Origin: a bacterium
GTDB lineage: Bacteria > Patescibacteriota > Microgenomatia > Daviesbacterales > UBA10151
Assembly: GCA_021786315.1 (NCBI GenBank)
Contig: JAJYNN010000002.1
Coordinates: 462,997 to 526,996 of the forward strand
Length of the DNA stretch: 64,000 nucleotides
Direction of reading: 5' to 3'
Made by a program: the position numbers and the translations under genes. This document shows, in pieces, positions 12 through 54,434 of the stretch. Position 1 is the first letter of the stretch. Each line of letters begins with the position of its first letter. Below the pieces are notes generated by a model. The model searched no databases. It saw nothing but the letters and a program-made list of their open reading frames with translations, and was not told the DNA's origin.

Positions 12-263
12 GTGAATGTTGGTAATGGAGCCAATGTTCCCCGGGTTTTTGATGCTTTGGCTAAGGCTAATTCTCCGGCTGGGGTAAAAAAAGTTACCTG
101 GCTCATTGATGGAGCCCAAAAGAATGTCCAAACAGCGGAACCTTTTGCCCAGCATGTAGAGTTTGCTGCTGGTGATAAGGGCTCACACACCATCACGGTG
201 ACTCTGGAAGATAACAATGGTCAGACATATTCCGCTTCTATTGGGGTAACGGTAGCGCTGTAG
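12..263 (+). CDS. C-terminal fragment of a protein whose start lies upstream of the window; function unknown
   Basis: ORF open to the window edge; no recognisable motif. Confidence 0.3.
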   Translation: MNVGNGANVPRVFDALAKANSPAGVKKVTWLIDGAQKNVQTAEPFAQHVEFAAGDKGSHTITVTLEDNNGQTYSASIGVTVAL

Positions 264-317
264 AATTTTTAATTTTAAATTTAAAATTTTCAATAGAAAT
301 TGAAAATTAGTAACTAC

Positions 318-2030
318 TCACACAAATTCGGTTATGTCTATTTCGAATACAGCTACTCTTTTATCTATTCCAAATCTATTGATAATTCTGGGATGGGCTT
401 CGCCCATGGCACCGGAATTCATTTTAAGGAATCGGGTTGGATGAAATACTAACCTTTCTCTCCCATCCTGGCCGTTTTCTTGCAAAGTGATGTTCAAGTT
501 TAGGGCTTTTGCTGCTTTCTGCCAGATTACATGAAGTGTTTTTAATGGGTTATCTGTTCCGTCAGACAAAGCCGCTGATAAAACATACTTTTCTTCCGGC
601 CCGCTTTCGCCGGGAATATAAACTTTGCCAATCTCAAAAATTCCCACCTCGGACATATTCTTAAGGTTTTCCGCAACCTTTTCTACTAAATTAGGCATGA
701 TACTGTTCCTTAGGTATTCGGTTTCCACTGACATCGGATTGGCAATTTTTATTAATCTCTCTGTTGGAATCTCAAAGTTCTTGAGAATCTGGGTGGGAAA
801 AAAGGAATAGGTTTGGACTTCATCAAGCCCGCTATCTGCCAGCGCTTTTTTAAGACTATAGATCAGCTCAAAAAGGCTTTGGTCAACTTTTTCCGGCATT
901 TTACCGACAAGCTCTTTGGCTTTGATATTCTCATACCCATACATCCTGGCCACTTCCTCCACCACATCAGCTTCAATCTCAATATCCAACCTCCAATATG
1001 GGGGCTTTACGTTCACGCAAGGCGTCACCTTGCCGTGTAAGGCGTCACCTTGCACAGGCTCAGCAACTTGGAAGTGAAGTTTTTCTAAGGCTGATTTGAT
1101 ATAGGCAGAATCAATGTCTGCTCCTACGAGTGAGCGAAGTTTTTCTTCAGATACCAAAATGTTCCTTGGCTCCTCTTTAAGGTTATCAATGATTGTTACT
1201 GCTGTAAGTGTTCCGCCTAGACCTTCATACATCTTTATGGCGGCTTCCAGGGCCTCAAACAACCTCTTTTTTGTTAACCCGTGTTGAAATCTCCTGCTGG
1301 CTTCTGAAGGCAGGGCTAAACGTCCGGCTGTTCTTCTGATGGAAGTCGGATCAAAGATAGCTGCTTCCAAAAAGATGGTTGTAGTCGAATCGCTAATTTC
1401 ACTATCCTTACCTCCCATAACCCCAGCCAACCCCACGGCTTTTTCGGTATCGGCAATGACTAAATCCACAGGTTCCAAAACCCTTTTCTTGTGGTCCAAA
1501 GTTTCCAGCTCTTCCCCGACCCCGGCAGTTCGAACTACCAGAGTTTGGTCTTTCACTCTGGAAGCGTCAAAAGCATGCAATGGCTGGCCATATTCCAACA
1601 TAACCAAATTGGTAACATCGGCCACATTATTAATGGCCCGCATTCCGGAACTGGCTAATTTCTTAGCCCAATCTTTTTCAGAAGGGGCAACCTTTAATCC
1701 CTCAATTTTGGCAATACAATAAAGCGGAGCCAGATCCAAAGCTTCAACCTCGACTGGGGTTTCTGACAGTTTTTGGGTAACCCAGCGATAACTTGATTCT
1801 TCTGATTCAGTAAACGAAACCTCAGAATCAGTTAAAGCTGCTACCTCATAAGCTACACCCCGAAGAGATAAAAGATCGGGTCTGTTATAACCCTTTAAAT
1901 CCAGCTCAATGTGGTCCTCAGTTACTTCCCTGACTCCGCCCTGGATCCGGGAGTTTAAAAGTTCTGCCAACTTTTCATCAGAGACACTGATTTTTACTAA
2001 TTCTTTTAACCAATTTAGGGAAACTTTCAC
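318..2030 (-). CDS. pheT: Phenylalanine--tRNA ligase beta subunit (short CPR-type form)
   Basis: MGGKDSEISDSTTTIFLEAAIFDP B3/4-like and catalytic-like core motifs; 4-nt overlap with upstream pheS. Confidence 0.9.
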   Translation of the reverse strand: MKVSLNWLKELVKISVSDEKLAELLNSRIQGGVREVTEDHIELDLKGYNRPDLLSLRGVAYEVAALTDSEVSFTESEESSYRWVTQKLSETPVEVEALDLAPLYCIAKIEGLKVAPSEKDWAKKLASSGMRAINNVADVTNLVMLEYGQPLHAFDASRVKDQTLVVRTAGVGEELETLDHKKRVLEPVDLVIADTEKAVGLAGVMGGKDSEISDSTTTIFLEAAIFDPTSIRRTAGRLALPSEASRRFQHGLTKKRLFEALEAAIKMYEGLGGTLTAVTIIDNLKEEPRNILVSEEKLRSLVGADIDSAYIKSALEKLHFQVAEPVQGDALHGKVTPCVNVKPPYWRLDIEIEADVVEEVARMYGYENIKAKELVGKMPEKVDQSLFELIYSLKKALADSGLDEVQTYSFFPTQILKNFEIPTERLIKIANPMSVETEYLRNSIMPNLVEKVAENLKNMSEVGIFEIGKVYIPGESGPEEKYVLSAALSDGTDNPLKTLHVIWQKAAKALNLNITLQENGQDGRERLVFHPTRFLKMNSGAMGEAHPRIINRFGIDKRVAVFEIDITEFV

Positions 2031-3608: not shown

Positions 3609-3953
3609 TTATTTTGACTCGGAGATGACTTGCTTGAAGGCTTCGAGGTCGTGGGCGGCCAACTCAGCAAGCATTTTTCTGTTTAAGAGAATATTTTTCT
3701 CTTTCAGGGCAGCCATAAATTTGGAATAAGATAGGCCCTCGTTATTTAAGGCAATCCCCATTTGGGTAATCCAAAGTTTACGCATATCCCTTCTTCTTTG
3801 GCGGCGTCCGGCCAAGGCGTATTGACCAGCGTGCAAGCTGGCGGACTTTCCCTCTTTGATGAGCTTGCTGCGGCCACCTTGATAGCCCTTGGTAAGCTCG
3901 TGTAATTTTTTATGTTTTCTGTGTGCGGTCATGCCGCGTTTTACTCTAGCCAT
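3609..3953 (-). CDS. rplT: 50S ribosomal protein L20
   Basis: MARVKRGMTAHRKHKK...GQYALAGRRQRRR typical of L20. Confidence 0.9.
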   Translation of the reverse strand: MARVKRGMTAHRKHKKLHELTKGYQGGRSKLIKEGKSASLHAGQYALAGRRQRRRDMRKLWITQMGIALNNEGLSYSKFMAALKEKNILLNRKMLAELAAHDLEAFKQVISESK

Positions 3954-3957
3954 CTCT

Positions 3958-4026
3958 TGAATTTAGAATGCAGAATTTAGAATGCAGAATTAAATTCATA
4001 ATTCATTATTCTTAATTCCTAATTCG
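3958..4026. repeat. Imperfect tandem heptamer array (GAATTNN-type) in the rpmI-rplT intergenic region
   Basis: tgaatttagaatgcagaatttagaatgcagaattaaattcataattcattattcttaattcctaattcg. Confidence 0.6.
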
Positions 4027-4176
4027 TCTTTCCTCCTTTTCCTCTTACCTTTAACAGGTTAGTTATTTTACCATACCAGGAGCCTGATCTGTTGATTTGG
4101 GAATAAGTTTGGGCTCCCCGGTTTCCGGACATCGACCTGTTGGATTGTCGGAAATTGCGGACAGTTCTCCCCATTT

Positions 4177-9146: not shown

Positions 9147-9923
9147 TTAACTAAACCTGGAGACTGCAGCCTGGTGGGCTTGGTTTTCTAAAGTATCATC
9201 CAAAGGTTCAAGTTTGATCTCTTTTCCATATTTTACTTCCAGGGCTTTTTTCAGCAACCAATCAGCAAGTTTGGGGTTTTTAGGCAGGAGTGAGCCGTGC
9301 ATGTAGGTGCCAACAGCATTCTTGTGGATACAGCCTTCGCTTTTGTCTTCCCCATTATTCCCGTGTCCTTTAACAACTGTACCTAAAGGTTTTGCCCCAT
9401 CTTTAAGATAGGTTTTTCCGGAATGGTTCTCAAAGCCTACAAGTGAATTAGGAATTAAGAATTTGGAATTATGAATTTCTTCGTTTTGCATTCTGAATTC
9501 TGCACTCTGAATTCGGATAACTATATTCCCGATCATCCGGTCAAAGCTGGCTTTGGTATAGGCCGGGAATAACCCTACTCCCGGAAGTTTTGGGCCTTCA
9601 TGCGGCTGGTAATAATCCCCCAATAGCTGATACCCCCCACAAATAGCCAGTAGCGGCACTCCTCTTTCTGCCTCTTCTTTAATAACCTTACCCTTACCAC
9701 TTTGTCCCAGATCCTTGGCTACTAATTCTTGGGCCTGGTCCTGGCCTCCTCCGAAAAAGAAAATATCCACATCCCCTTTCTTGAGCTTATCTCCTACTGA
9801 AATATGCCTGATTTCTACTTCAATCCCCCTCCACTGGGCCCGTTTCGTAAGGGTAATAATATTCCCGGTATCACCATAGATGTTCATTAAATCTGAATAA
9901 AGATAACCAAGGGTAATTTTCAA
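9147..9923 (-). CDS. gatD: Lipid II isoglutaminyl synthase glutaminase subunit GatD (CobQ-type GATase), TTG start
   Basis: GATase triad context AICGGYQLLG; adjacent to murT; carries an in-frame heptamer-repeat insert (EIHNSKFLIPNS). Confidence 0.8.
   Translation of the reverse strand: MKITLGYLYSDLMNIYGDTGNIITLTKRAQWRGIEVEIRHISVGDKLKKGDVDIFFFGGGQDQAQELVAKDLGQSGKGKVIKEEAERGVPLLAICGGYQLLGDYYQPHEGPKLPGVGLFPAYTKASFDRMIGNIVIRIQSAEFRMQNEEIHNSKFLIPNSLVGFENHSGKTYLKDGAKPLGTVVKGHGNNGEDKSEGCIHKNAVGTYMHGSLLPKNPKLADWLLKKALEVKYGKEIKLEPLDDTLENQAHQAAVSRFS
9446..9512. repeat. Heptamer array inside gatD coding sequence (in-frame)
   Basis: ggaattaagaatttggaattatgaatttc ... attctgaattctgcactctgaattcgg. Confidence 0.6.
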
Positions 9924-10001
9924 TTTTCAGTTTTTAATTTTCAATGAATTCTCAAATTCCAATTCTCAAACTTCGAAAATTGGTAGTTGGCACTTGAAAA
10001 T

Positions 10002-11291
10002 TTACTTTTCCTCCTTCCAGTAGTATTGCTTGATGCCGGATTTAGCTAAGATGGATTGCAGTTTTAGGAGGGCTGTATATGTAGGAAGGATGAATAAACG
10101 GCCTTCCAGACCCTTTACAGAGGCGTGAAAAGCCACTTGCAGGTCCTTTTCTGTCTCTAATGTTTTGGGGTCAAATCCGGCATATTTAAGTCTTAAGGCT
10201 AGATCCTCAGCCCTGATCCCCGAACAAATTATTCTTAAATCTATATTCCTAAATCCTAAATCTTCGAAGTTGGTATCCCAAATCCAGGAAACATCGGTCC
10301 CGTCAGCCAGGTTGTCATTTAAAGCTAAGAGTAACCTGTCCTCCGGTTTAATCTGGTCTTGGATTGTCCGGATAACCTGAGTGGCTCCTGTGGGGTTTTT
10401 AATTAAGAAAATATAGCCTTCCTTGTTATCTTTCAGGTTGAGTTTCTCCACCCTGCCAAAGGCTGGGGAAAAGGATTCCAGGCCACTTTTAATGTTTCCC
10501 AGGCTAACTCCCAGCTCAGAAGCTACAGCAAAAGCAGCCAAAAAGTCATAAATATGGTAGGTTCCGGGTAAAGGAAGCGTAAAATTTTGGTTTTTGACCT
10601 TAAATTTAGTTATATCTAATCCCTGAGGCTGGATATTGGTGGCTTCCAAATCAAGGTCATTCTTTTTTCTCAGTTGAGCTCTCTTTTCCCCGGCAATCTT
10701 ATAATCCGTTACCCCAAAAGTCTTAACTTCCCCTTTGAAGCTCTTTTGAAGCTCAAGCAGGTTTTCATCATCTCCATTTAAGAAGATTTTTACACTTGGA
10801 TTGACTTGGGAGAGAGTTTTCCCCCATTTTTTGACTATAGTATCCACTTCTCCGTACCTGTCCAGTTGATCCCGGAAAACGTTTAGAAAAACGATAATGT
10901 CGGGGTTAATCTTGGGGACAACAATATTGAAGGCAGCCTCATCCAATTCCCAAATGGCCAAATCGACAGAATTATGAATTATGAATTTAGAATTATGAAT
11001 CAAAGAAGACGCAATGCCTCTTTCTAAGTTAGAGCCAGTTTCGTTTCTGATAACCTTGATGCCTTGAGCCCCGGCAAACTGAGCCAGCATCCTTGAGGTG
11101 GTGGTTTTGCCGTTGGTGCCGGTAATGACCACGGTTTTTGGGATTTGCCTGCCTAGTTCCGCTACCAGGTTTGGGTAAAGCTTGAGGGCATAATAGCCTG
11201 GCGCAGCGGAACCGCCACCAATTTTTAAAACCTGGGTAGTTTTATGGATCGTTTTACCTAAAGTTATCGCTGCCGTCTTTTTAAGATTCAT
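10002..11291 (-). CDS. murT: Lipid II isoglutaminyl synthase MurT (Mur ligase domain plus DUF1727)
   Basis: Mur ligase P-loop TGTNGKTTTS; C-terminal DUF1727-like region; carries an in-frame heptamer-repeat insert (LIHNSKFIIHNS). Confidence 0.8.
   Translation of the reverse strand: MNLKKTAAITLGKTIHKTTQVLKIGGGSAAPGYYALKLYPNLVAELGRQIPKTVVITGTNGKTTTSRMLAQFAGAQGIKVIRNETGSNLERGIASSLIHNSKFIIHNSVDLAIWELDEAAFNIVVPKINPDIIVFLNVFRDQLDRYGEVDTIVKKWGKTLSQVNPSVKIFLNGDDENLLELQKSFKGEVKTFGVTDYKIAGEKRAQLRKKNDLDLEATNIQPQGLDITKFKVKNQNFTLPLPGTYHIYDFLAAFAVASELGVSLGNIKSGLESFSPAFGRVEKLNLKDNKEGYIFLIKNPTGATQVIRTIQDQIKPEDRLLLALNDNLADGTDVSWIWDTNFEDLGFRNIDLRIICSGIRAEDLALRLKYAGFDPKTLETEKDLQVAFHASVKGLEGRLFILPTYTALLKLQSILAKSGIKQYYWKEEK
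10968..11002. repeat. Heptamer array inside murT coding sequence (in-frame)
   Basis: cagaattatgaattatgaatttagaattatgaatc. Confidence 0.6.
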
Positions 11292-12941: not shown

Positions 12942-13013
12942 AGCGGGAGACGGGATTCGAACCCGCGACATCCTCGTTGGCAACGAGGCACTCTACCACT
13001 GAGTTACTCCCGC
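12942..13013 (-). tRNA. tRNA-Gly (anticodon GCC)
   Basis: RC reads GCGGGAGTAACTCAGTGGTAGAGTGCCTCGTTGCCAACGAGGATGTCGCGGGTTCGAATCCCGTCTCCCGCT. Confidence 0.85.
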
Positions 13014-13181
13014 GAACGTTAGTGAGCGGTGAGCACTTCCGCAGCCAATTTTTGGTTGGCGAGGAGTACTCCCACATTTTGGTGCCGCAGCCTGGAATAG
13101 GGCTACTCGCTAAAGCGAGATCCTGTTCCTGTCTGCTTCAAAATTTGTCTTTGCTGACACAAGGTCAGCACGACAAACTTG

Positions 13182-13254
13182 TGCCGCAGCCTGGAATCGA
13201 ACCCGGATAAGACGCTCTTCAGGCGCCCGCCTTGACCAACTTGGCTACTGCGGC
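13182..13254 (-). tRNA. tRNA-Phe (anticodon GAA)
   Basis: RC reads GCCGCAGTAGCCAAGTTGGTCAAGGCGGGCGCCTGAAGAGCGTC..CCGGGTTCGATTCCAGGCTGCGGCA; one G-A mismatch in the T-stem. Confidence 0.8.
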
Positions 13255-13362
13255 TAGTCTACTAGACGCCAGCAAACGAGGTGTTAAACTTTGTAAACAC
13301 CGAGTTTACTGCGACGATCAAAACTAACCAATTTTATCTAATTAACCTCTGTTATGCAATTG

Positions 13363-13435
13363 TGGGCACTAAGGGACTCGAACCCCTGACATCTACAGTG
13401 TAAATGTAGCGCTCTACCAACTGAGCTAAGTGCCC
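13363..13435 (-). tRNA. tRNA-Val (anticodon TAC)
   Basis: RC reads GGGCACTTAGCTCAGTTGGTAGAGCGCTACATTTACACTGTAGATGTCAGGGGTTCGAGTCCCTTAGTGCCCA. Confidence 0.85.
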
Positions 13436-13488
13436 TCGCTTTGCTCGGTCACTTGCGATAGTTCCGCTACGCGTGTAACTATCTAAAG

Positions 13489-13582
<94 letters not shown>

Positions 13583-13593
13583 TTGGTTGCTTG

Positions 13594-13676
13594 TGCCGAG
13601 GACAGGACTTGAACCTGCACGCCTTTTGGGCACTACCACCTCAAGGTAGCGTGTATACCAGTTTCACCACCTCGGC
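13594..13676 (-). tRNA. tRNA-Leu (anticodon GAG), long variable arm
   Basis: RC reads GCCGAGGTGGTGAAACTGGTATACACGCTACCTTGAGGTGGTAGT..GCAGGTTCAAGTCCTGTCCTCGGCA. Confidence 0.8.
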
Positions 13677-20280: not shown

Positions 20281-20766
20281 TTATTCACCGGGTTTAAGCC
20301 ACTGGATATAGGCACAACCGGTAGCCTTTTTGGCTTCCTTGTCCCAGCCTGCAGTGGAACATTTCTTCATTCTTTTGCCGTTAGCTGTGGTGAATAAAAC
20401 CAAAGCTGCTCCGCAATCGGGGCACATTTCGTCTAAAGTTTCAGAAGTTCCGTTAATCCACTCAACATAGTCGCAACCTGTGGCTTGTTTGGCTTCCTTG
20501 TCCCAGCCTCCGGCGGAGCACTTTTTCATCTTCTTGCCAAAACGGGTCACTTGCATGATTAAAGCTGATCCGCATTTAGGACACTTTTCATCTAATTCCT
20601 GAGGCTCAACCTGCATCCACAAAACATAATCACAACCTTCGTTTTGCCTGGTTTGGGCATTCCAGGAACCGGCTGAACACCGGCGGAGCTTCCTGCCTGT
20701 TGGAGTTTCAATAACATCACCTAAAGCGGAGCCGCACTTTGGACAACTTTCGGAAGTATCTGACAT
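20281..20766 (-). CDS. Protein made of three tandem topoisomerase-type C4 zinc-ribbon modules
   Basis: Three repeats of CPKCGSAL..G(R/K)K..KCS.GGW....K...GCDY..W; the DNA also shows ~165-bp internal tandem repeats. Confidence 0.6.
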   Translation of the reverse strand: MSDTSESCPKCGSALGDVIETPTGRKLRRCSAGSWNAQTRQNEGCDYVLWMQVEPQELDEKCPKCGSALIMQVTRFGKKMKKCSAGGWDKEAKQATGCDYVEWINGTSETLDEMCPDCGAALVLFTTANGKRMKKCSTAGWDKEAKKATGCAYIQWLKPGE

Positions 20767-29221: not shown

Positions 29222-30979
29222 TTATTTAATTTCCAGTGGCTGGTTTTGTGATAAACGCGAATAGACATAGGCCGTTTGGTCGGAAGGTGATAAAAGATAA
29301 GCCTGCCGGGCGGCCATTAATGCTTCATCCGTCTTTTTCAGATTATAGTCAGCTATGGTCAAAATTAACCAAAGCTTTGCATTGTACGGAAGGAGTTTAA
29401 GTGATTCTGTAGTAAAATCGCGGGCTTTCTGGTTGTCTTTATCCTGGAAAAGCAGAATATTGGCGTAGTTTTCATAAGCCAAGTAATATTGGCCGTTATC
29501 GATAGCCTTTTTGTAGTATTCCTTAGCTTTTTGGTAATCTCCCCTTCTTTCGGCAACTACCCCTAAATTATTCCAGTTAGTCCACCATTTTGGGGCCAGC
29601 TGGGCAGATTTTTCAAAATGGATGGCCGCTTCATCCATCTGCCCGTGTCTAAATAGCTCCACCCCGTAATTGTTTTCCAAATCAAAGCTGTTTTGGGAAA
29701 CCTTAATATCGTGGCCATATAAAGTTAAGCCGTCTTTCCAGTCGAAATTACGGATAAAAGTTCGTGCTGAGAGGGCGAGAATGATTACCAGGAGACAGGC
29801 GGTAAAAATTTTCAATTTCCAGGTACCAATTTTCAATGAATTTTCAATTTTGGAATTTGCAAAGATGGTGCCAGCCATACCTAGTAGCCCCACCATGGGA
29901 AGGTAAAACCAGCGGTCAGAATAAGTTAAGTCCAAGGGAAAAATTTGCAGATGCATCCCTAAGCCTGTTGTAAACCAGACAAAGAAAAATAAATAAGCTT
30001 TAAGGTCTTCACTTTTCTTTTTCCACAAAATTGCCGCAATTGATACTAAAATAACAAACAAGGTTAGATCCACCATTAGCGGCATCGTAAAGTTATTCCA
30101 GGTTAAGGATTTCACTGCCCAGTGCTGGTTAATGGCTAGATTCTTGGGAAAAACAAAAGTTTTAAGGTAGGAAAAAATTATTTTGGGGATGCTTAAAATC
30201 CGTTCCGAAAGCGGCATGACGGTAATCGGGGACAATCCGTGTTTATTAAAGAAGATCCCGGCCACCACAAACCTCAGGAATGAATATACCCCGGCTACGG
30301 TGCAAATAGCACCGATATACCGCAAAAGTTCGTGGCGCTTAAAGAATAAAAAGTAAGCTCCAATGATTATTATAAAACCAACCCCGGTTTCTTTGGAAAG
30401 TAACGAAGCAAGCAGCAGTCCGGTCAAAATTAACCACCTCTTGAGGCTGATAATCCCTTTTGTGGCATAATTTAATCCCAAAACGCCAAAGAAAAAGAAC
30501 AGGATATCCTGCAGGTCAGAGATATAAACAACGGTTTCGGTGTTTAGAGGATGAACTAAAAAAATTAACGCCAGGAAAAAGGATAAAGTCTCCTTTTTGA
30601 GAATGCGCTTAAGAATCAGGAAAACAATTACTGAACTTGCAAGGTGTATGGATACCTGGAGAAGGTGGAAAAAGAAGGCATTGGGGCCAAAAACTGTATA
30701 AATTAAGGAAAAGAAAACGGTCATTAGCGGCTTGTAATATAATCCCCCTAACGTACCTGAGCCGCCGCTGTTAAAGGTGCTTTCAGAAAAAAACTGGAAA
30801 ATATTGCCGATGGAGTGTACCGGTAAGTTGTTTAAAACCTGTTCCTCATCATCCCAGACAAAACCATTAAAAAGACTGTTAAAATAAAGAAGTAAACCGA
30901 TTACTATTAGTAGAATCACCCATTTATTTTTCATGAAAGCAGAGTTAACCTTAACAGTATAGCTTGTTTTGATAATCAA
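29222..30979 (-). CDS. GT-C-like polytopic membrane glycosyltransferase with C-terminal TPR repeats (TMTC/PMT-like)
   Basis: ~11 TMs; FVWDDEEQV first-loop acidic motif; C-terminal TPR repeats; an in-frame heptamer repeat insert. Confidence 0.55.
   Translation of the reverse strand: MIIKTSYTVKVNSAFMKNKWVILLIVIGLLLYFNSLFNGFVWDDEEQVLNNLPVHSIGNIFQFFSESTFNSGGSGTLGGLYYKPLMTVFFSLIYTVFGPNAFFFHLLQVSIHLASSVIVFLILKRILKKETLSFFLALIFLVHPLNTETVVYISDLQDILFFFFGVLGLNYATKGIISLKRWLILTGLLLASLLSKETGVGFIIIIGAYFLFFKRHELLRYIGAICTVAGVYSFLRFVVAGIFFNKHGLSPITVMPLSERILSIPKIIFSYLKTFVFPKNLAINQHWAVKSLTWNNFTMPLMVDLTLFVILVSIAAILWKKKSEDLKAYLFFFVWFTTGLGMHLQIFPLDLTYSDRWFYLPMVGLLGMAGTIFANSKIENSLKIGTWKLKIFTACLLVIILALSARTFIRNFDWKDGLTLYGHDIKVSQNSFDLENNYGVELFRHGQMDEAAIHFEKSAQLAPKWWTNWNNLGVVAERRGDYQKAKEYYKKAIDNGQYYLAYENYANILLFQDKDNQKARDFTTESLKLLPYNAKLWLILTIADYNLKKTDEALMAARQAYLLSPSDQTAYVYSRLSQNQPLEIK
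29806..29860. repeat. AATTTTC-type heptamer array inside the 29222..30979 coding sequence (in-frame)
   Basis: aaaattttcaatttccaggtaccaattttcaatgaattttcaattttggaatttgc. Confidence 0.5.
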
Positions 30980-37640: not shown

Positions 37641-37647
37641 ACAAATT

Positions 37648-39138
37648 ATGAATTTAGAATTCAGAATTAAGAATTGGAATTGGTTATATTGGACTATACC
37701 GGTCTTTCTTTTTTTTGCTCAATGGATATTTACAGCTAACTCTATGTCTCAAATCCGCTACGAAGAACTGGCAGAATCTGTCCGTAACCCTTTTTGGCTC
37801 CAAAACCACACAATATATGACGGCGTTTCCAGTAATGTGGGGTGGTACGGAACTTTGCTGGTTATATATAAAATATTGGGGTTTACCTTAAATACAGCCA
37901 AGATCTACCGGTTAGTACTATCTTTAATATCGCTGTTTTCTTTAGCAGCATTGCTTAAAAAATTCCTTGGGGAGAAGTATGCCTGGATTCCACTTGTGAC
38001 AATTGGGTTGTCCCCCACTCTTTTGTATTTTAATACCTTACAAACTTCTTATGGCCTTGACCTGCAGTATTTCCCGATAACTTTATACCTTCTATCGACC
38101 ATAGACTTTAAGAAACTTTGGAATTCATTGTTCAAACAATCCTTAGTTTTTACAATTGCCATGATAGCCTGGATGTCCTATCCGACGTTCGTTTTCTATC
38201 TGCCGATTTTAGGGTTGGTATACCTTTATCAAATAAAAACACAGAAAGTCTATAGAAATTTCCTGCTCCTTGCCGGCGGTATCCTTGTTTCGTTTATATC
38301 ATTTGCCGCCCCTGTTGTTTTGGCTTTCCTTTACGTTAAGGATAAAAATCTATTGTTTTATGACCCCAAGGTCCAAAGCGGAATTTTCCGGGGAGCAGGA
38401 ACCCTGTATTTGAACTGGGGTAACTTTTGGCAAAACTTCTCAGGGACTTTGGGTGATCTCTTTAACTCGGCAGGAAGTTATTACTTTGAGGTATCTGTAG
38501 TGGATTTTTCCCACCTTCTTCCGCTTTTGGCAGTATTCTTCGTGGTTATTTTAGGAATTGTTTTAACGTTTCACCAGAAGAAAGCCCGCTTTCCGCTAAT
38601 CCTTATCTGGTTGGTGTTTATCACCAGTTTGATATTGGCAAACTTAACTTTTGATCCCAGCGGTAAGCCCGGTATCCGCCGCAGTACCAGTCTTCTGGCT
38701 AGCGTCTATGCCCTGTTTACAGTTTGCTGGTACTATACTGCGAAATGGAAAACTGAAAATTCCTCACTTAAAGTATTTGTTGTTGCCCTGCTCCTTATAA
38801 TCCCATTTCATCACCTATTGGCAATACCTTTTAACTTAGGAAACTTAACAGTGTCCAGCCCTTACCGGTACTCACTGCTCTTTGATGCAGCGGATACTCC
38901 GGCAAAGTCCTTAGATTTATTTATAGATGCCGCCCGGAAGCAAGACCTAAAACTGGGATGTAAAGACAAGGACGGGAAAGAAGCCACTTGCCGCTACGTC
39001 GAAGGCTATGCGGCAGTTGCTGGGTCTTGCCTGTGGAATAACTTAAACTGCCGTCCTATTTTAGGTTATGACGATAAAAAACAAGAGTTTATCCCCCTCA
39101 AGGTAGACCTTTGGGAAACCTACTACTGGAACCATTAA
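37648..39138 (+). CDS. Polytopic membrane protein, putative GT-C glycosyltransferase
   Basis: Polytopic; its N-terminus is encoded by a heptamer repeat (MNLEFRIKNWNW). Confidence 0.45.
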   Translation: MNLEFRIKNWNWLYWTIPVFLFFAQWIFTANSMSQIRYEELAESVRNPFWLQNHTIYDGVSSNVGWYGTLLVIYKILGFTLNTAKIYRLVLSLISLFSLAALLKKFLGEKYAWIPLVTIGLSPTLLYFNTLQTSYGLDLQYFPITLYLLSTIDFKKLWNSLFKQSLVFTIAMIAWMSYPTFVFYLPILGLVYLYQIKTQKVYRNFLLLAGGILVSFISFAAPVVLAFLYVKDKNLLFYDPKVQSGIFRGAGTLYLNWGNFWQNFSGTLGDLFNSAGSYYFEVSVVDFSHLLPLLAVFFVVILGIVLTFHQKKARFPLILIWLVFITSLILANLTFDPSGKPGIRRSTSLLASVYALFTVCWYYTAKWKTENSSLKVFVVALLLIIPFHHLLAIPFNLGNLTVSSPYRYSLLFDAADTPAKSLDLFIDAARKQDLKLGCKDKDGKEATCRYVEGYAAVAGSCLWNNLNCRPILGYDDKKQEFIPLKVDLWETYYWNH

Positions 39139-51065: not shown

Positions 51066-52307
51066 CTATATCTTGAATCTTCGGTCAGAAAGAAACGGAT
51101 TTGGCTTGCGTTTCATTGAACAGGAGTCTAATAGAATTCCTCTCATTAAGGTAAAGTCACCAAACTTACCATTCACTTTATCCAGAGTCTGCAGGATCTT
51201 TTCCTGCCTATTTACCTCGGGAAGCCAGGATAAATTCGCTGGTTTGAATGGTTTGAGGTTGGAAATGGCTACCCCAATCATCCTAATTTTCTCTCCATCC
51301 CAAATCTGGTGAAATATCTCCCAACCTCCTTGAAAGATTTCTAAACCATCAGTAGTGTAATTTTTCAAAGTTTTTTGCATCCCATCCCCATGAAATACCA
51401 TTTCTGCACCAGGTTGAAAAGCTGATCTATACCAGCAATGGATTGTCTTACCCGTCATTCTCTTCTTCCTTAGCCTCGCAGCCACCATCTCACTCATTTT
51501 AAGGAGGATTTGCCTGATCTCAGCCGGATCTTTTGTGTCGTGGTCAATTGTGTAGCGGTGGCCGATGGATTTGACCTCCTCTTTTTCATAAAAAGGTTTA
51601 ATGGGAGTATGATCTATCCCACGAGCCATGTTGTATAAAACTTCTCCGTAGGATTTGAAGGAGGCTAAAAGATATTCTTTAGGGGTTTTACGTAAAGTTT
51701 TAAAATCCCGGATCCCTAAGTTAAAAAGCCTCTTTTTCATCCTCGGGCCAATACCGCAAACATCATCAAGCTCTGCCTGGTCTAATACTCTTAAGGCAGT
51801 CTCCTGATCAGGTATAACCACTAACCCATCTGGCTTTTGCAAAGATCCGGCAAGTTTTGCCATTAACTTGTTATAAGAAATTCCAATAGAACAGGTAATC
51901 CTTTCCCCAAGCTCGACTCGGAGCCGCTGTTTGATCTCATGAGCTATTCTGATACTCTGACATTCCGATACTCCGTCACACTGGAGGAAACATTCATCAA
52001 TGGAAAACACTTCCAAGTAGGGTGTGTAATCCTTAAAAATGTTCAAAAACTTGGTGGTGCAGGTTAGGTATTTATCGGAATCTCCGGGAACAATGATAAT
52101 TTCCGGACAGACCTTTCTGGCTTCCCAAACCTGCATTCCGGTTTTTACTCCCCTTTTTTTGGCTTCAATAGAGGCCGTACAGAGGACAGTTCTTACTTCA
52201 CGGTCTCCTCCGGTTACCCCAACAGGTTTACCCCGAAGTCTGGGATTAGCTTGCTGCTCCACACTCGCGAAGTATGAATTCATGTCTATATGGAGGATTG
52301 TTTTCAT
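51066..52307 (-). CDS. dinB: Y-family DNA polymerase IV (DinB-like); start placed at the Met preceding the conserved ILHIDMNSYFASVE
   Basis: Y-family N-terminal motif and DE catalytic region (VFSIDECFL); the longer upstream extension is probably not coding. Confidence 0.8.
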   Translation of the reverse strand: MKTILHIDMNSYFASVEQQANPRLRGKPVGVTGGDREVRTVLCTASIEAKKRGVKTGMQVWEARKVCPEIIIVPGDSDKYLTCTTKFLNIFKDYTPYLEVFSIDECFLQCDGVSECQSIRIAHEIKQRLRVELGERITCSIGISYNKLMAKLAGSLQKPDGLVVIPDQETALRVLDQAELDDVCGIGPRMKKRLFNLGIRDFKTLRKTPKEYLLASFKSYGEVLYNMARGIDHTPIKPFYEKEEVKSIGHRYTIDHDTKDPAEIRQILLKMSEMVAARLRKKRMTGKTIHCWYRSAFQPGAEMVFHGDGMQKTLKNYTTDGLEIFQGGWEIFHQIWDGEKIRMIGVAISNLKPFKPANLSWLPEVNRQEKILQTLDKVNGKFGDFTLMRGILLDSCSMKRKPNPFLSDRRFKI

Positions 52308-52358
52308 GGTTTTAAAGGCGACCTCCTTGTCCGTATGGCAAAGTGTTGCCTTGTGCGT

Positions 52359-52401
52359 TTTTTCAAGGTGACGCCTGCCTTCGGACGAGGCGTCACCTTT
52401 T
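52359..52401 (+). terminator. Strong GC hairpin (GGTGACGCCT..loop..AGGCGTCACC) followed by T6 on the + strand, lying in the 5' leader region of dinB
   Basis: 10-bp perfect stem plus T6 read directly; the minus-strand reading has A-runs on both sides, so it terminates + strand transcription only. Confidence 0.5.
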
Positions 52402-52411
52402 TTAAGAGTCT

Positions 52412-52693
52412 CTAATTCTCTTCCTCTACCATTTCCAGAAACCACTTGAGCTTCCCGGTATCAAATTTTAGGCGGTAAAAATTACTGTTTGCCGAGACGG
52501 AGAAATGATAGAATATGGAAGCACCTGAGTGGGAGTTGTGAACGAGGTTAACAGCGTCGATTTTAATAGCCCGGCCTTTCCAGAAAAACAGGTATGGCTG
52601 TACCTGGGCGTTTTTAAAAAATACCCAAACGTTTACAGGTTCTAAAATCTCTACCATACAATGAATATATACCAAATAAAACCCGAAATACAA
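52412..52693 (-). CDS. Hypothetical small protein immediately upstream of dinB (a possible accessory factor of the Y-family polymerase)
   Basis: ORF only; context. Confidence 0.35.
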   Translation of the reverse strand: MYFGFYLVYIHCMVEILEPVNVWVFFKNAQVQPYLFFWKGRAIKIDAVNLVHNSHSGASIFYHFSVSANSNFYRLKFDTGKLKWFLEMVEEEN

Positions 52694-52694
52694 T

Positions 52695-54434
52695 ATGACA
52701 AATTACATTAAACTTATCTTTTTAATCTCATTCTTAATTCTGAATTCTATATTCTTAATTCGGCCTGCACAGGCTGTTGTTGATCCCCTATCCACCCCTA
52801 ACAATAAATTTGGGGTCCACATTATTACCGGCAGCCCCGACGAGGCTTCCCCTGCCGCCCAGATGGTAAACTCCTCCGGCGGAGACTGGGGCTATATTAC
52901 GGTTTTAATTGAAAGTAAAAATAGGAATCACGATCAATGGCAAGCCTTTTTTAATGATTTAAGACGCCGACACTTAATCCCTCTGGTAAGAATTGCTACC
53001 GAGCCTGAGGGAAATTATTGGAAAATTCCTTATAACGGTGAAGAACAAGCCTGGGCAGACTTCCTGGACAGCCTGGTTTGGCCCACCAAGAACCGTTATG
53101 TCATTATCTATAACGAGCCCAACCAGGGCCAGGAATGGGCTGGTAAAGTGGATCCGGCCTCTTATGCCCAGGTTTTAGATAAAACAATCACCGCTTTAAA
53201 GAATAAAAATCCCGATTTTTTTGTCCTCAATGCCGGACTTGATGCATCTGCCCCCGATAAATACCCCAGCTACGCTGATGAGACCACATTCTTAAGCCAA
53301 ATGGAGGCTGCAGTCCCGGGGATTTTTAATAAGCTGGATGGCTGGGTTTCCCATTCCTACCCCAACCCCGGCTTTGCCGGTTCCCCTGATGCCTCCGGAC
53401 GCGGGACAGTCAGGACTTGGGCTTGGGAGTTAAATTACCTGAAAAATTTAGGTGTAAATAAAACTCTCCCGGTGTTTATTACCGAAACAGGCTGGAAACA
53501 TGCTGAGGGGCTGGATTACGATAAATCCTTACCCAATGCCGATACAGTCGCCGATTATCTTAAGGATGCTTTTACCAATGCCTGGAATAGCAGCCAAATC
53601 GTGGCTGTTACCCCATTCCTGCTCAACTACCAACAGGCTCCTTTTGACCATTTCTCTTTTAAGAAGCTGACAGGAGAGCCGCAAAACCTGAAGATCCTTG
53701 GCGCTTCCTACCCGGATTATTACCCGCCATACCAAGCTATGATGGATCTGCCGAAGGTAGCCGGCCACCCTTTTCAGGAAAACAAAGCTGCTCTAGTAAA
53801 AGGCACTATTTACCCCTCAATTGTGGCCGGGGAAAGCTACACCATTCCCTTAACCTTTAAAAATACAGGGCAATCAATTTGGGAGGATGGTGAACCACTT
53901 GAGCTCAGGGTATTATCCGGAGGTGATGATTTTGGAATTCAATCCATTCAGCCTGCCATTGCCCAAAAAGTAGAACCCGGACAAAACGCTATCTTTAATG
54001 TAAATCTTAAAGCTCCCCAAGGCGGAGATTATCAAATTACCCTACAGCTATTTCACGGAGGCAAAGCTTTTGACCAAAACCCGTTTGTTTTCAATACCAA
54101 GGTTAAATCCCCGGTGATTTTACAGGTTAAAACTTCCCTTTGGGGCAAGAAAAATTCTGCCGGAAGTTATCTTTTAACCATCCTCAATAACGCTTTTAAG
54201 AGCAGTGTCGAGGTAACCATAGATGACCAGGGAATATCCAAACCTTTGGAATCACGCTATCTTTTGCCGGATTATCCTTTTACCTTTACCCTCCACAAAC
54301 CCTTCTATAAACCTAAGTCGATCAATGTTCAGGTTGTTTCCGGTATCAACCAGTTAAATTTTGGGACTTTAGAGCCTGACTTCTTATCAGCGATTTTAAA
54401 TCCCAAAGAGTTTTGGGATTTGCTTCCGTTTTAG
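52695..54434 (+). CDS. Secreted clan GH-A (GH5-like) glycoside hydrolase with C-terminal beta-sandwich domains
   Basis: Signal peptide; IIYNEPNQG (NEP acid/base) and VFITETGW (nucleophile) motifs; its signal-peptide region is encoded by a heptamer repeat. Confidence 0.55.
   Translation: MTNYIKLIFLISFLILNSIFLIRPAQAVVDPLSTPNNKFGVHIITGSPDEASPAAQMVNSSGGDWGYITVLIESKNRNHDQWQAFFNDLRRRHLIPLVRIATEPEGNYWKIPYNGEEQAWADFLDSLVWPTKNRYVIIYNEPNQGQEWAGKVDPASYAQVLDKTITALKNKNPDFFVLNAGLDASAPDKYPSYADETTFLSQMEAAVPGIFNKLDGWVSHSYPNPGFAGSPDASGRGTVRTWAWELNYLKNLGVNKTLPVFITETGWKHAEGLDYDKSLPNADTVADYLKDAFTNAWNSSQIVAVTPFLLNYQQAPFDHFSFKKLTGEPQNLKILGASYPDYYPPYQAMMDLPKVAGHPFQENKAALVKGTIYPSIVAGESYTIPLTFKNTGQSIWEDGEPLELRVLSGGDDFGIQSIQPAIAQKVEPGQNAIFNVNLKAPQGGDYQITLQLFHGGKAFDQNPFVFNTKVKSPVILQVKTSLWGKKNSAGSYLLTILNNAFKSSVEVTIDDQGISKPLESRYLLPDYPFTFTLHKPFYKPKSINVQVVSGINQLNFGTLEPDFLSAILNPKEFWDLLPF

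Follow-up and report, generated by a model that had tools for sequence, protein, structure and literature searches.

How does repeat DNA made of 7-nucleotide (nt) units come to lie in frame inside two subunits of a conserved, normally essential enzyme? The question is raised by gatD and murT, two neighboring genes on a 64,000-nt stretch of contig JAJYNN010000002.1 (hereafter the window, meaning the whole stretch analyzed; G+C content [GC] 42%). The nearest proteins to the window's MurT and GatD carry the name Candidatus Daviesbacteria, of the Microgenomates group in the Candidate Phyla Radiation (CPR). Both genes are apparently intact: gatD (9147-9923, minus strand, TTG start at 9921-9923), encoding the glutaminase subunit of lipid II isoglutaminyl synthase, matches chains of solved GatD with E values of 1.5e-51 to 3.7e-47, and murT (10002-11291, minus strand), encoding the Mur-ligase-like subunit with PF08245 and PF08353, matches chains of solved MurT with an E value of 9e-57. 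The GatD product contains RIQSAEFRMQNEEIHNSKFLIPNSLVGF, with the peptide IHNSKFLIPNS, and the MurT product contains SSLIHNSKFIIHNSVDLA, with IHNSKFIIHNS. A first-pass annotation of this DNA had proposed that one selfish heptamer repeat was inserted in frame into both genes, and translation of both open reading frames (ORFs) confirms the peptides and positions that it gave. The answer we favor, with a probability of roughly 0.6, is a dispersed, copy-pasted and slippage-prone heptamer-array element that is translated where it lands in tolerant loops; as part of that whole reading, and with the same confidence, the gatD segment would be a complete copy and the murT segment a half-sized copy of a dispersed, non-coding repeat class.

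Heptamer arrays recur throughout the window. Tandem Repeats Finder places period-7 arrays at 9445-9477, 9490-9514, 9915-9945, 10969-11000, 3965-4025, 37644-37675, 52730-52761 and 264-294, which amounts to 8 or more places with 3.6 to 4.7 copies per array. Scanning periods from 4 to 14 returned 8 arrays at period 7 and 4 at period 14 but none or one at each of periods 4-6 and 8-13, and period 7 is the sole tandem-repeat class enriched in the window. The pattern GAATTNNGAATT, with at most one mismatch, occurs 39 times compared with 12.7 ± 3.8 in shuffled sequence, a count reached in 0 of 100 shuffles. The arrays are real and beyond chance. Units of the GAATTNN type lie at 5 loci of the window and units of the GAAAATT type at 3-4 loci, and 5 of the 8 arrays fall within long protein-coding ORFs.

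The segment in gatD is a complete two-armed element of 70 nt (9445-9514, minus strand) that spans about 23-24 codons and encodes approximately (R)IQSAEFRMQNEEIHNSKFLIPNS. The first-pass annotation was correct that this block is repeat-encoded, but the block is larger than the 11 residues assigned to it. Read on the coding strand, its left arm is GAATTCA GAGTGCA GAATTCA GAATGCA (9487-9514), followed by an A-rich loop, AAACGAAG (9479-9486), and a right arm of five ATTCNNA units (9445-9478). A second two-armed copy, 67 nt long (3959-4025, plus strand), lies between genes, as had also been proposed; it is flanked by a small 51-codon ORF (4019-4174, minus strand) and rplT (3609-3953, minus strand) and consists of GAATTTA GAATGCA GAATTTA GAATGCA GAATTAA and then five inverted ATTCNNA-type units. 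The two copies are ~88% identical, including the order of their variant units, and the similarity ends abruptly at flanks that are unrelated. Relative to transcription they are oppositely oriented. When the gatD reading frame is followed through the intergenic copy it meets a TAG and a TAA, and the gatD copy differs precisely there, with GAATTCA in place of GAATTTA and a loop that is longer by 3 nt.

Both copies fold into hairpins, at −12 kcal/mol (z-score −1.9) for the gatD element and −16.1 kcal/mol (z −2.7) for the intergenic copy (folded as 3955-4030), and elements in two relatives gave z of −3.8 and −3.9 (L001) and −1.9 (L081). In the window and in relatives the two-armed elements form periodic hairpins, in which helices of 4-6 bp alternate with internal loops of 2-3 nt. 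A search of the elements against Rfam returned no family, only sub-threshold matches to microRNA-like hairpins.

The gene junction that holds the intergenic copy is empty in relatives. The window's 67-nt element occupies exactly the space that separates the small ORF from rplT and provides that ORF's stop codon, the TAG of a GAATTAG unit; L082, L327 and L328 have no such space, their small ORF touching or overlapping the ATG of rplT. A further relative, L084, has murT and gatD overlapping by 4 nt with no spacer, and a gap of 1 nt between rpmI and rplT. The small ORF is itself conserved in several Daviesbacteria, where 48-51 codons (MG.NT.NFRQS...YSQINRSG.W...) lie between rpmI (L35) and rplT (L20), at 4019-4174 (minus strand) in the window, 14800-14946 in L327, 11229-11375 in L328 and 15098-15253 in L082; it has no Pfam match on record.

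Filled and empty states are also found at the GatD site. Loop lengths were taken from the 120 best-matching GatD sequences, of which the named ones are mostly Daviesbacteria, and the 120 best-matching MurT sequences. At this site of GatD, the basal turn of 6 residues is kept in 44 of the 120 and enlarged to 9-38 residues in 73, and the insert lengths are bimodal, with clusters at ~11-13 and 22-26 residues that match one arm and two arms plus loop, respectively. The window's element replaces the turn ESMFGK (or similar) of uninserted orthologues at a position that aligns with the turn at residues 136-142 of Staphylococcus aureus GatD, and solved GatD structures have 14-17 residues fewer at this site. 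We compared twelve relatives at the site using DNA obtained through exact-protein look-ups. Copies of such elements within gatD were found in L001, L081, L083 and L086 as well as in the window, and the GAATKCA family fills the site in L083 and L086. Expanded sites in other relatives hold different heptamer families (TCAGCTA with GACGACT; GTTAATC with CGATAAA; AATTTCA), and the peptides at the site show no resemblance between genomes. The insert of L082 (10385-10507) is an inverted repeat, GTCATTCTGAG / CTCAGGATGAC, with no 7-nt periodicity detected, and may be a decayed hairpin element. A neighbor-joining GatD tree (234 columns) on which insert type was compared with phylogeny was star-like and uninformative.

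These alignments uphold the first-pass view that the segment is repeat DNA and not an ancestral protein feature: a near-identical copy lies between genes, 44 of the 120 best-matching GatD orthologues have only the short turn, and orthologues of GatD and MurT do not all share one peptide written in unrelated DNA. The enzyme appears to accommodate the insert. An AlphaFold2 model of GatD (predicted template-modeling [TM] score 0.85) superimposes on 6GS2, 6H5E, 5N9M and 9SQ9 with TM-scores of 0.82-0.89, those for 6GS2 and 6H5E being 0.84-0.88, and the modeled core fold is kept despite the insert, which is unstructured between strands 132-138 and 160-165 and has a predicted local distance difference test score below 50 at residues 144-156. 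We had considered that the two arms and loop might be translated as an extended beta-hairpin, and dropped this because the model shows an unstructured, low-confidence loop.

The murT segment (10968-11000, minus strand) is a single-arm array that reads ATTCATA ATTCTAA ATTCATA ATTCATA ATTCT on the coding strand and encodes IHNSKFIIHNS; it is without a hairpin partner (fold z +1.5). The proposal of an insertion into both enzymes stands here in part, in that related in-frame repeat DNA is present in both, but murT carries no net lineage-specific insertion: its loop has 11 residues against a median of 12 (range 6-22) among the 120 orthologues and exceeds that of S. aureus MurT by only 4. An ATTCATN array occurs in the same register in L327 and L328, whose MurT is ~60% identical to the window's. 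On these alignments, the murT block is best read as an old half-element; among the best-matching orthologues its loop is usually filled. Relatives have two or more further array hot spots in MurT, near residue 230 and ~72 residues before the C-terminus, where the heptamer family changes from genome to genome; both sites are free of arrays in the MurT of the window. The C-terminal-side site is seen in murT of L002, L003, L082, L084, L085 and L086, ~215 nt before the stop codon, and further hot-spot arrays lie at L081 9320, L003 9381 and L084 9408.

Across the clade the same pattern is repeated. Ten Daviesbacteria-like fragments (185 kb) contain 37 period-7 arrays, compared with 0-2 at other periods, and 31 of the 37 are within long ORFs, in fragments mostly fetched around murT-gatD. 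Every array located in a long ORF leaves the host frame open; since a heptamer array runs through all three frames, an open frame requires stop-free variant units, such as these arrays have. Units at different loci match with at most one mismatch in 19% of comparisons within a genome and 6% between genomes (permutation p ~5e-4). The L001 element just upstream of gatD and the L081 element inside gatD are 85-90% identical over ~75 nt, loop included. Each Daviesbacteria genome has several array families, with copies at gene junctions and inside genes and with empty sites in relatives. Judged from these comparisons, the array phenomenon is clade-wide, and its insertion hot spots hold different heptamer families in different genomes. 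Strains close enough to show presence/absence polymorphism were not found in the protein collection searched, in which the nearest MurT is 65% identical; the closest usable relative is L329, at ~69% nucleotide identity.

Other arrays of the window lie at the ends of genes or within them, and those that the first-pass annotation had noted in three further proteins are present as described. ORF 37648-39138 takes its ATG and its first ~10 codons (MNLEFRIKNW...) from the GAATTNN array at 37644-37675 (plus strand). The counterpart of this ORF in L329 begins MKKIYW and is without 27 nt (9 codons) of the array, which makes the array a lineage-specific insertion. An ATTCTNA array (52727-52761, plus strand) codes for SFLILNSIFLI, which forms the hydrophobic core of the signal peptide predicted for ORF 52695-54434. 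A GAAAATT-type segment (29804-29851, minus strand) encodes KIENSLKIGTWKLKIF within the membrane/tetratricopeptide repeat protein 29222-30979 and makes that protein ~5 residues longer than most orthologues. Two more places carry arrays: an AATTTTA/GAAAATT-type array with a small hairpin, in non-coding DNA just past the stop end of the 318-2030 (minus strand) ORF (259-310, plus strand), and the 78-bp murT-gatD spacer (9924-10001, minus strand), which holds GAAAATT-type heptamers, a second family, and a local hairpin, and whose arrays reach across the gatD TTG. The gatD TTG and the ATG of ORF 37648 (37648-37650) both lie inside heptamer arrays, as does the stop of the 4019 ORF, indicating that the elements supply translation signals and that start and stop codons can come from heptamer DNA. 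Elsewhere, the window has thirteen tRNA genes, six of them within ~750 bp at 12942-13676 (minus strand). A DinB-like Y-family DNA polymerase gene (51066-52445, minus strand) adjoins the array-bearing 52695 gene, and a 161-residue protein (20281-20766, minus strand) matched many zinc-ribbon families weakly, mostly below threshold; we draw no link between either and the repeats.

Heptamer arrays were also found outside the clade. Sixty-eight loci from other phyla (1.08 Mb) contain 37 period-7 arrays, concentrated in Chloroflexia, and GAATTNN hairpin arrays are present in named Chloroflexia genomes, one of which encodes IIHNSKFII at a lipoprotein N-terminus. Heptamer hairpin arrays occur near murT-gatD in Chloroflexia and Sphaerobacter, at L006 (859-899, 1156-1198 and 1848-1893), L046, L058 and L016. 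L058 has 9 arrays in 20.7 kb. L006 has a GAATTAT array whose translation, KLIIHNSKFII, lies at the N-terminus of a putative lipoprotein, and CCTCAAA units that cover the gatD start region. An exact-pattern scan of metagenome contigs for a GAATKCA left arm, GAATTYAGARTGCAGAATTYAGAATGC, matched at least 120 contigs with a GC of 30-70%, mostly 60-67%; of the 80 contigs that were retrieved, 28 have an inverted right arm no more than 120 nt after the left one. In these contigs (L087-L166), whose sources are mostly soil or rhizosphere, an AT-rich GAATTCA/GAATGCA array is often succeeded by an inverted TGCATTC/TGAATTC arm; five of them share the loop AGAAGCGGAGC between differing flanks. In L088 (4554-4843; contig GC 64%) a ~190-nt unit occurs twice in tandem with a GAATKCA hairpin in each. 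Among IMG/VR viral contigs, the GAATKCA 27-mer had 0 matches, and four consecutive GAATTNN units were found in at least 120 (L207-L286 among the matches listed).

Arrays inside genes are more conserved than the genes that carry them. The 29804-29851 segment is identical to L329 at 45 of 48 nt; no other 48-nt stretch of the gene, which as a whole is 69% identical, is conserved as well. At positions where the residue is identical the codon is also identical in 13 of 14 cases inside the segment compared with 175 of 372 elsewhere (Fisher p = 5.5e-4). The murT array is identical to L327/L328 at 28 of 33 nt, with the rest of the gene at 61%, and the corresponding codon counts are 7 of 8 and 99 of 249 (p = 0.009). 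The gatD element compared with L083/L086 has 67-68% nucleotide identity, the level of the enzyme core, while its peptide is just 43-52% identical.

We suggest the following account of how these segments arose. The repeat class consists of short arrays of 4-5 imperfect tandem heptamers, often paired in opposite orientation about a short loop to make a weak periodic hairpin of ~70 nt. Replication slippage would cause arrays to grow, shrink and homogenise, and templated copy-paste would carry whole elements to new places or overwrite older arrays, with gene conversion between hairpin-forming arrays or some trans-acting enzyme as the candidate copying agent. Selection would then retain in-frame, stop-free copies in tolerant spots such as surface turns, N-termini, signal peptides and operon junctions. 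An insert of this kind would be translated as a disordered loop, with the enzymes remaining functional. The window pair and the L001/L081 pair go beyond what slippage in place would produce, which argues that whole elements are copied between sites.

Several observations weigh against this account. No target-site duplication is visible at either full copy (gatD and 3959-4025), and a Pfam scan of ~40 of the 70 window ORFs, in a window that is ~7% of its 942-kb contig, found no transposase, RAYT, IS200-type or HUH enzyme, so the copying step is one that we infer rather than demonstrate. Occupation of the same GatD turn and of three MurT sites by differing families calls for very frequent insertion, targeting of existing arrays, or turnover in place. 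Sampling centered on murT-gatD for most fragments inflates the count of 31 of 37 arrays within ORFs; the window gives 5 of 8. Translation of the insert we infer only from intact reading frames. Finally, the comparisons above show array DNA changing less than synonymous sites in its host genes, which a purely neutral "junk" insert does not predict, and the label "selfish" in the first-pass annotation is not borne out; such conservation suggests either that the copies evolve in concert or that the nucleic acid is under selection.

The second of these options leads to a different explanation, in which selection retains the arrays for a function of the nucleic acid itself, inside genes as well as elsewhere, and the peptide is a by-product. 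We regard this as possible but unlikely. Conservation over the synonymous background in three independent comparisons is what it would predict, and the arrays at 3959-4025, 9913-9946, 37641, 52727 and 259 lie at start or stop codons or within ~50 nt of them, the same placement as the TAACTGA repeats that MacGregor suggested as possible regulator binding sites (PMC4679880). The recurrence of the GAATKCA unit in contigs of 30-70% GC from many environments is also in its favor. Yet many orthologues manage without arrays, as does L084 with its overlapping or nearly abutting junctions, and the units at one site vary between genomes. Hairpin formation is weak, with z-scores between −1.0 and −3.9 that in several cases lack significance, and is absent from the murT copy; Rfam offers no match, and the excess conservation would arise equally from concerted evolution among copies.

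A more speculative proposal, which we hold to be quite unlikely, is that some trans-acting system with sequence specificity, conserved across phyla, writes or maintains the arrays, which would then not be passive products of slippage. Such a system would explain why GAATKCA and TCAGYTA/TAACTGA units recur in CPR, Chloroflexia, GC-rich soil bacteria, cyanobacteria and Beggiatoaceae, and it would account both for the supra-synonymous conservation of in-gene copies and for the re-occupation of the same loops by different families. In that case Daviesbacteria would offer a natural experiment with the system at work inside coding sequence, where orthologous, dated insertion sites could reveal the factor by phylogenetic profiling.

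Evolution of each array in place, through local slippage and with no copying between loci, would attribute the likeness of units to composition and chance. Heptamers are the commonest long simple repeats in most or many bacterial genomes, with polymerase slippage as the proposed cause, according to Mrazek 2007 as relayed in PMC4679880 and PMC4692102. This would fit hot-spot loops in which arrays persist between distantly related genomes with different units, and the murT array, with its one arm and its loop of usual size. For two-armed elements it is contradicted by the window pair, 67-70 nt long with sharp ends and unrelated flanks, and by the shared loop of the L001 and L081 elements at non-orthologous sites. 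Unit sharing within genomes is significant, and an inverted second arm is not made by slippage alone. We consider slippage in place, as the whole explanation, to be decidedly improbable.

A still weaker case can be made for adaptive or ancestral protein loops selected for their amino acids, with the periodicity of the DNA incidental. IHNS-x-F-x-x-H-x-S is kept in three MurT lineages and KIENxLKIGTWKLKIF in two, but the DNA is identical at synonymous positions and also occurs as non-coding sequence, the segment is missing from the short-turn GatD orthologues and from all solved structures, site peptides are unrelated between genomes, and AlphaFold2 gives the insert no confident structure; this explanation is essentially refuted. 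An assembly or binning artefact, that is, collapsed or chimeric low-complexity sequence, could be imagined for repeats, which are error-prone in assembly, on a metagenome-assembled contig, but it is hardly credible, given that identical MurT, GatD and 29222 proteins are on record from three independent sources (NCBI, ENA and the independent Logan assembly), the frames are intact and at least 10 independent assemblies of relatives share the architecture.

Among known systems, the tandem heptamer repeats of bacteria go back to about 1990, when short tandemly repeated repetitive (STRR) sequences were recognized; descriptions place them almost wholly between genes, and we know of no explanation for their origin, spread or function. 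The STRR heptamers of heterocystous cyanobacteria, attributed to Mazel (1990) and Vioque (1997), reportedly also occur inside a functional gene, that for RNase P RNA. Like the Daviesbacteria arrays, they consist of tandem 7-nt units in several dispersed families per genome, and the window arrays share the defining traits of STRR and TAACTGA-type repeats, namely period-7 tandem units, recurrence at unlinked loci and a unit found in distant taxa. According to PMC4692102, STRR and GGGNATC repeats lie chiefly between genes, and coding regions have fewer of them than expected. The Daviesbacteria arrays differ in lying inside protein-coding genes in 5 of 8 cases in the window and in most cases in relatives' fragments, which were sampled around murT-gatD.

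The TAACTGA repeats of Beggiatoaceae, cyanobacteria and Bacteroidetes (MacGregor 2015, PMC4679880) lie mostly just upstream of start codons; their ORF overlap is mainly at protein ends, where the reverse orientation encodes LSVISYQ, and they appear to be horizontally shared by a mechanism that is not known (PMC4679880). They resemble the Daviesbacteria arrays in being short (2-6 or more units), in the dispersal of one heptamer over many loci, in their concentration at gene starts and ends and in ribosomal-protein operons, in the translation of some copies and in having a unit common to distant phyla. In GatD of Daviesbacteria, the arm TCAGCTA (SAISYQL) differs by a single base from TCAGTTA, the reverse complement of TAACTGA. 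The two differ in that TAACTGA has stops in all frames in one orientation, overlaps ORFs almost only at protein ends and has yielded one indirect repeat, whereas Daviesbacteria have several families per genome, frequent inverted two-arm elements, in-frame residence in internal enzyme loops and clade-wide hot spots. The first-pass remark that no description of such insertions had been seen for this repeat type needs qualifying in the same way, as heptamers that overlap ORFs have been described, although mostly at ORF ends (PMC4679880). Our search of the literature on heptamer, miniature inverted-repeat transposable element (MITE), REP or palindromic repeats in CPR, Patescibacteria and Daviesbacteria, which left out most subscription journals, found nothing relevant.

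The likeness to Rickettsia palindromic elements that had been pointed out is apt as a description of behavior. Those elements, credited to Ogata et al. (2000, Science), are said to be in-frame selfish repeats of 100-150 bp with a fixed family consensus, confined to Rickettsia. Both kinds are palindromic, hairpin-capable and dispersed, lie in frame in housekeeping genes, where they add a peptide at fold-compatible places, and also occur in non-coding DNA. The Rickettsia elements have no internal 7-nt periodicity, whereas the Daviesbacteria elements are ~35-75 nt of tandem heptamers whose unit varies by family; their size, heptamer periodicity and host phylum make membership of the window elements in the Rickettsia family implausible, no relation in sequence is to be expected, and the analogy is one of function only. 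REPINs and REP sequences, as reportedly defined by Bertels and Rainey (2011), are extragenic, individually palindromic and tied to a RAYT gene. The architecture is similar, with two inverted short repeats around a spacer, a hairpin of ~70-110 nt, many copies, no target-site duplication and concerted conservation, but Daviesbacteria copies lie inside gatD and are heptamer arrays, and no RAYT was among the ~40 window ORFs scanned. The arms are inverted as in a MITE, but no duplication flanks the full copies and no transposase was found in the ~40 of 70 window ORFs scanned. Contingency loci of Haemophilus and Neisseria are perfect long repeats in surface or virulence genes that act by frameshifting. 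They share with the Daviesbacteria arrays tandem short repeats in or beside ORFs and a unit length that is no multiple of three, but the latter are imperfect, have ~4-5 units and are fixed in frame in housekeeping enzymes, which argues against phase variation.

What is new in Daviesbacteria is that heptamers are routinely in frame in conserved, normally essential enzymes, in the same few loops clade-wide, and that discrete two-armed hairpin elements can be matched to intergenic copies. Coding copies offer orthologous sites, empty-site controls and a synonymous clock, so that rates of gain, loss and homogenisation become measurable. For the annotation of CPR genomes there is a warning, as many "hypervariable loops", odd N-termini and signal peptides would be repeat DNA. 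By analogy, the closest precedents are the TAACTGA and STRR heptamers in kind, the Rickettsia palindromic elements in behavior and REPINs in architecture; among dispersed heptamer repeats, the distinguishing traits of the Daviesbacteria elements are residence in coding regions, hairpin pairing and supra-synonymous conservation.

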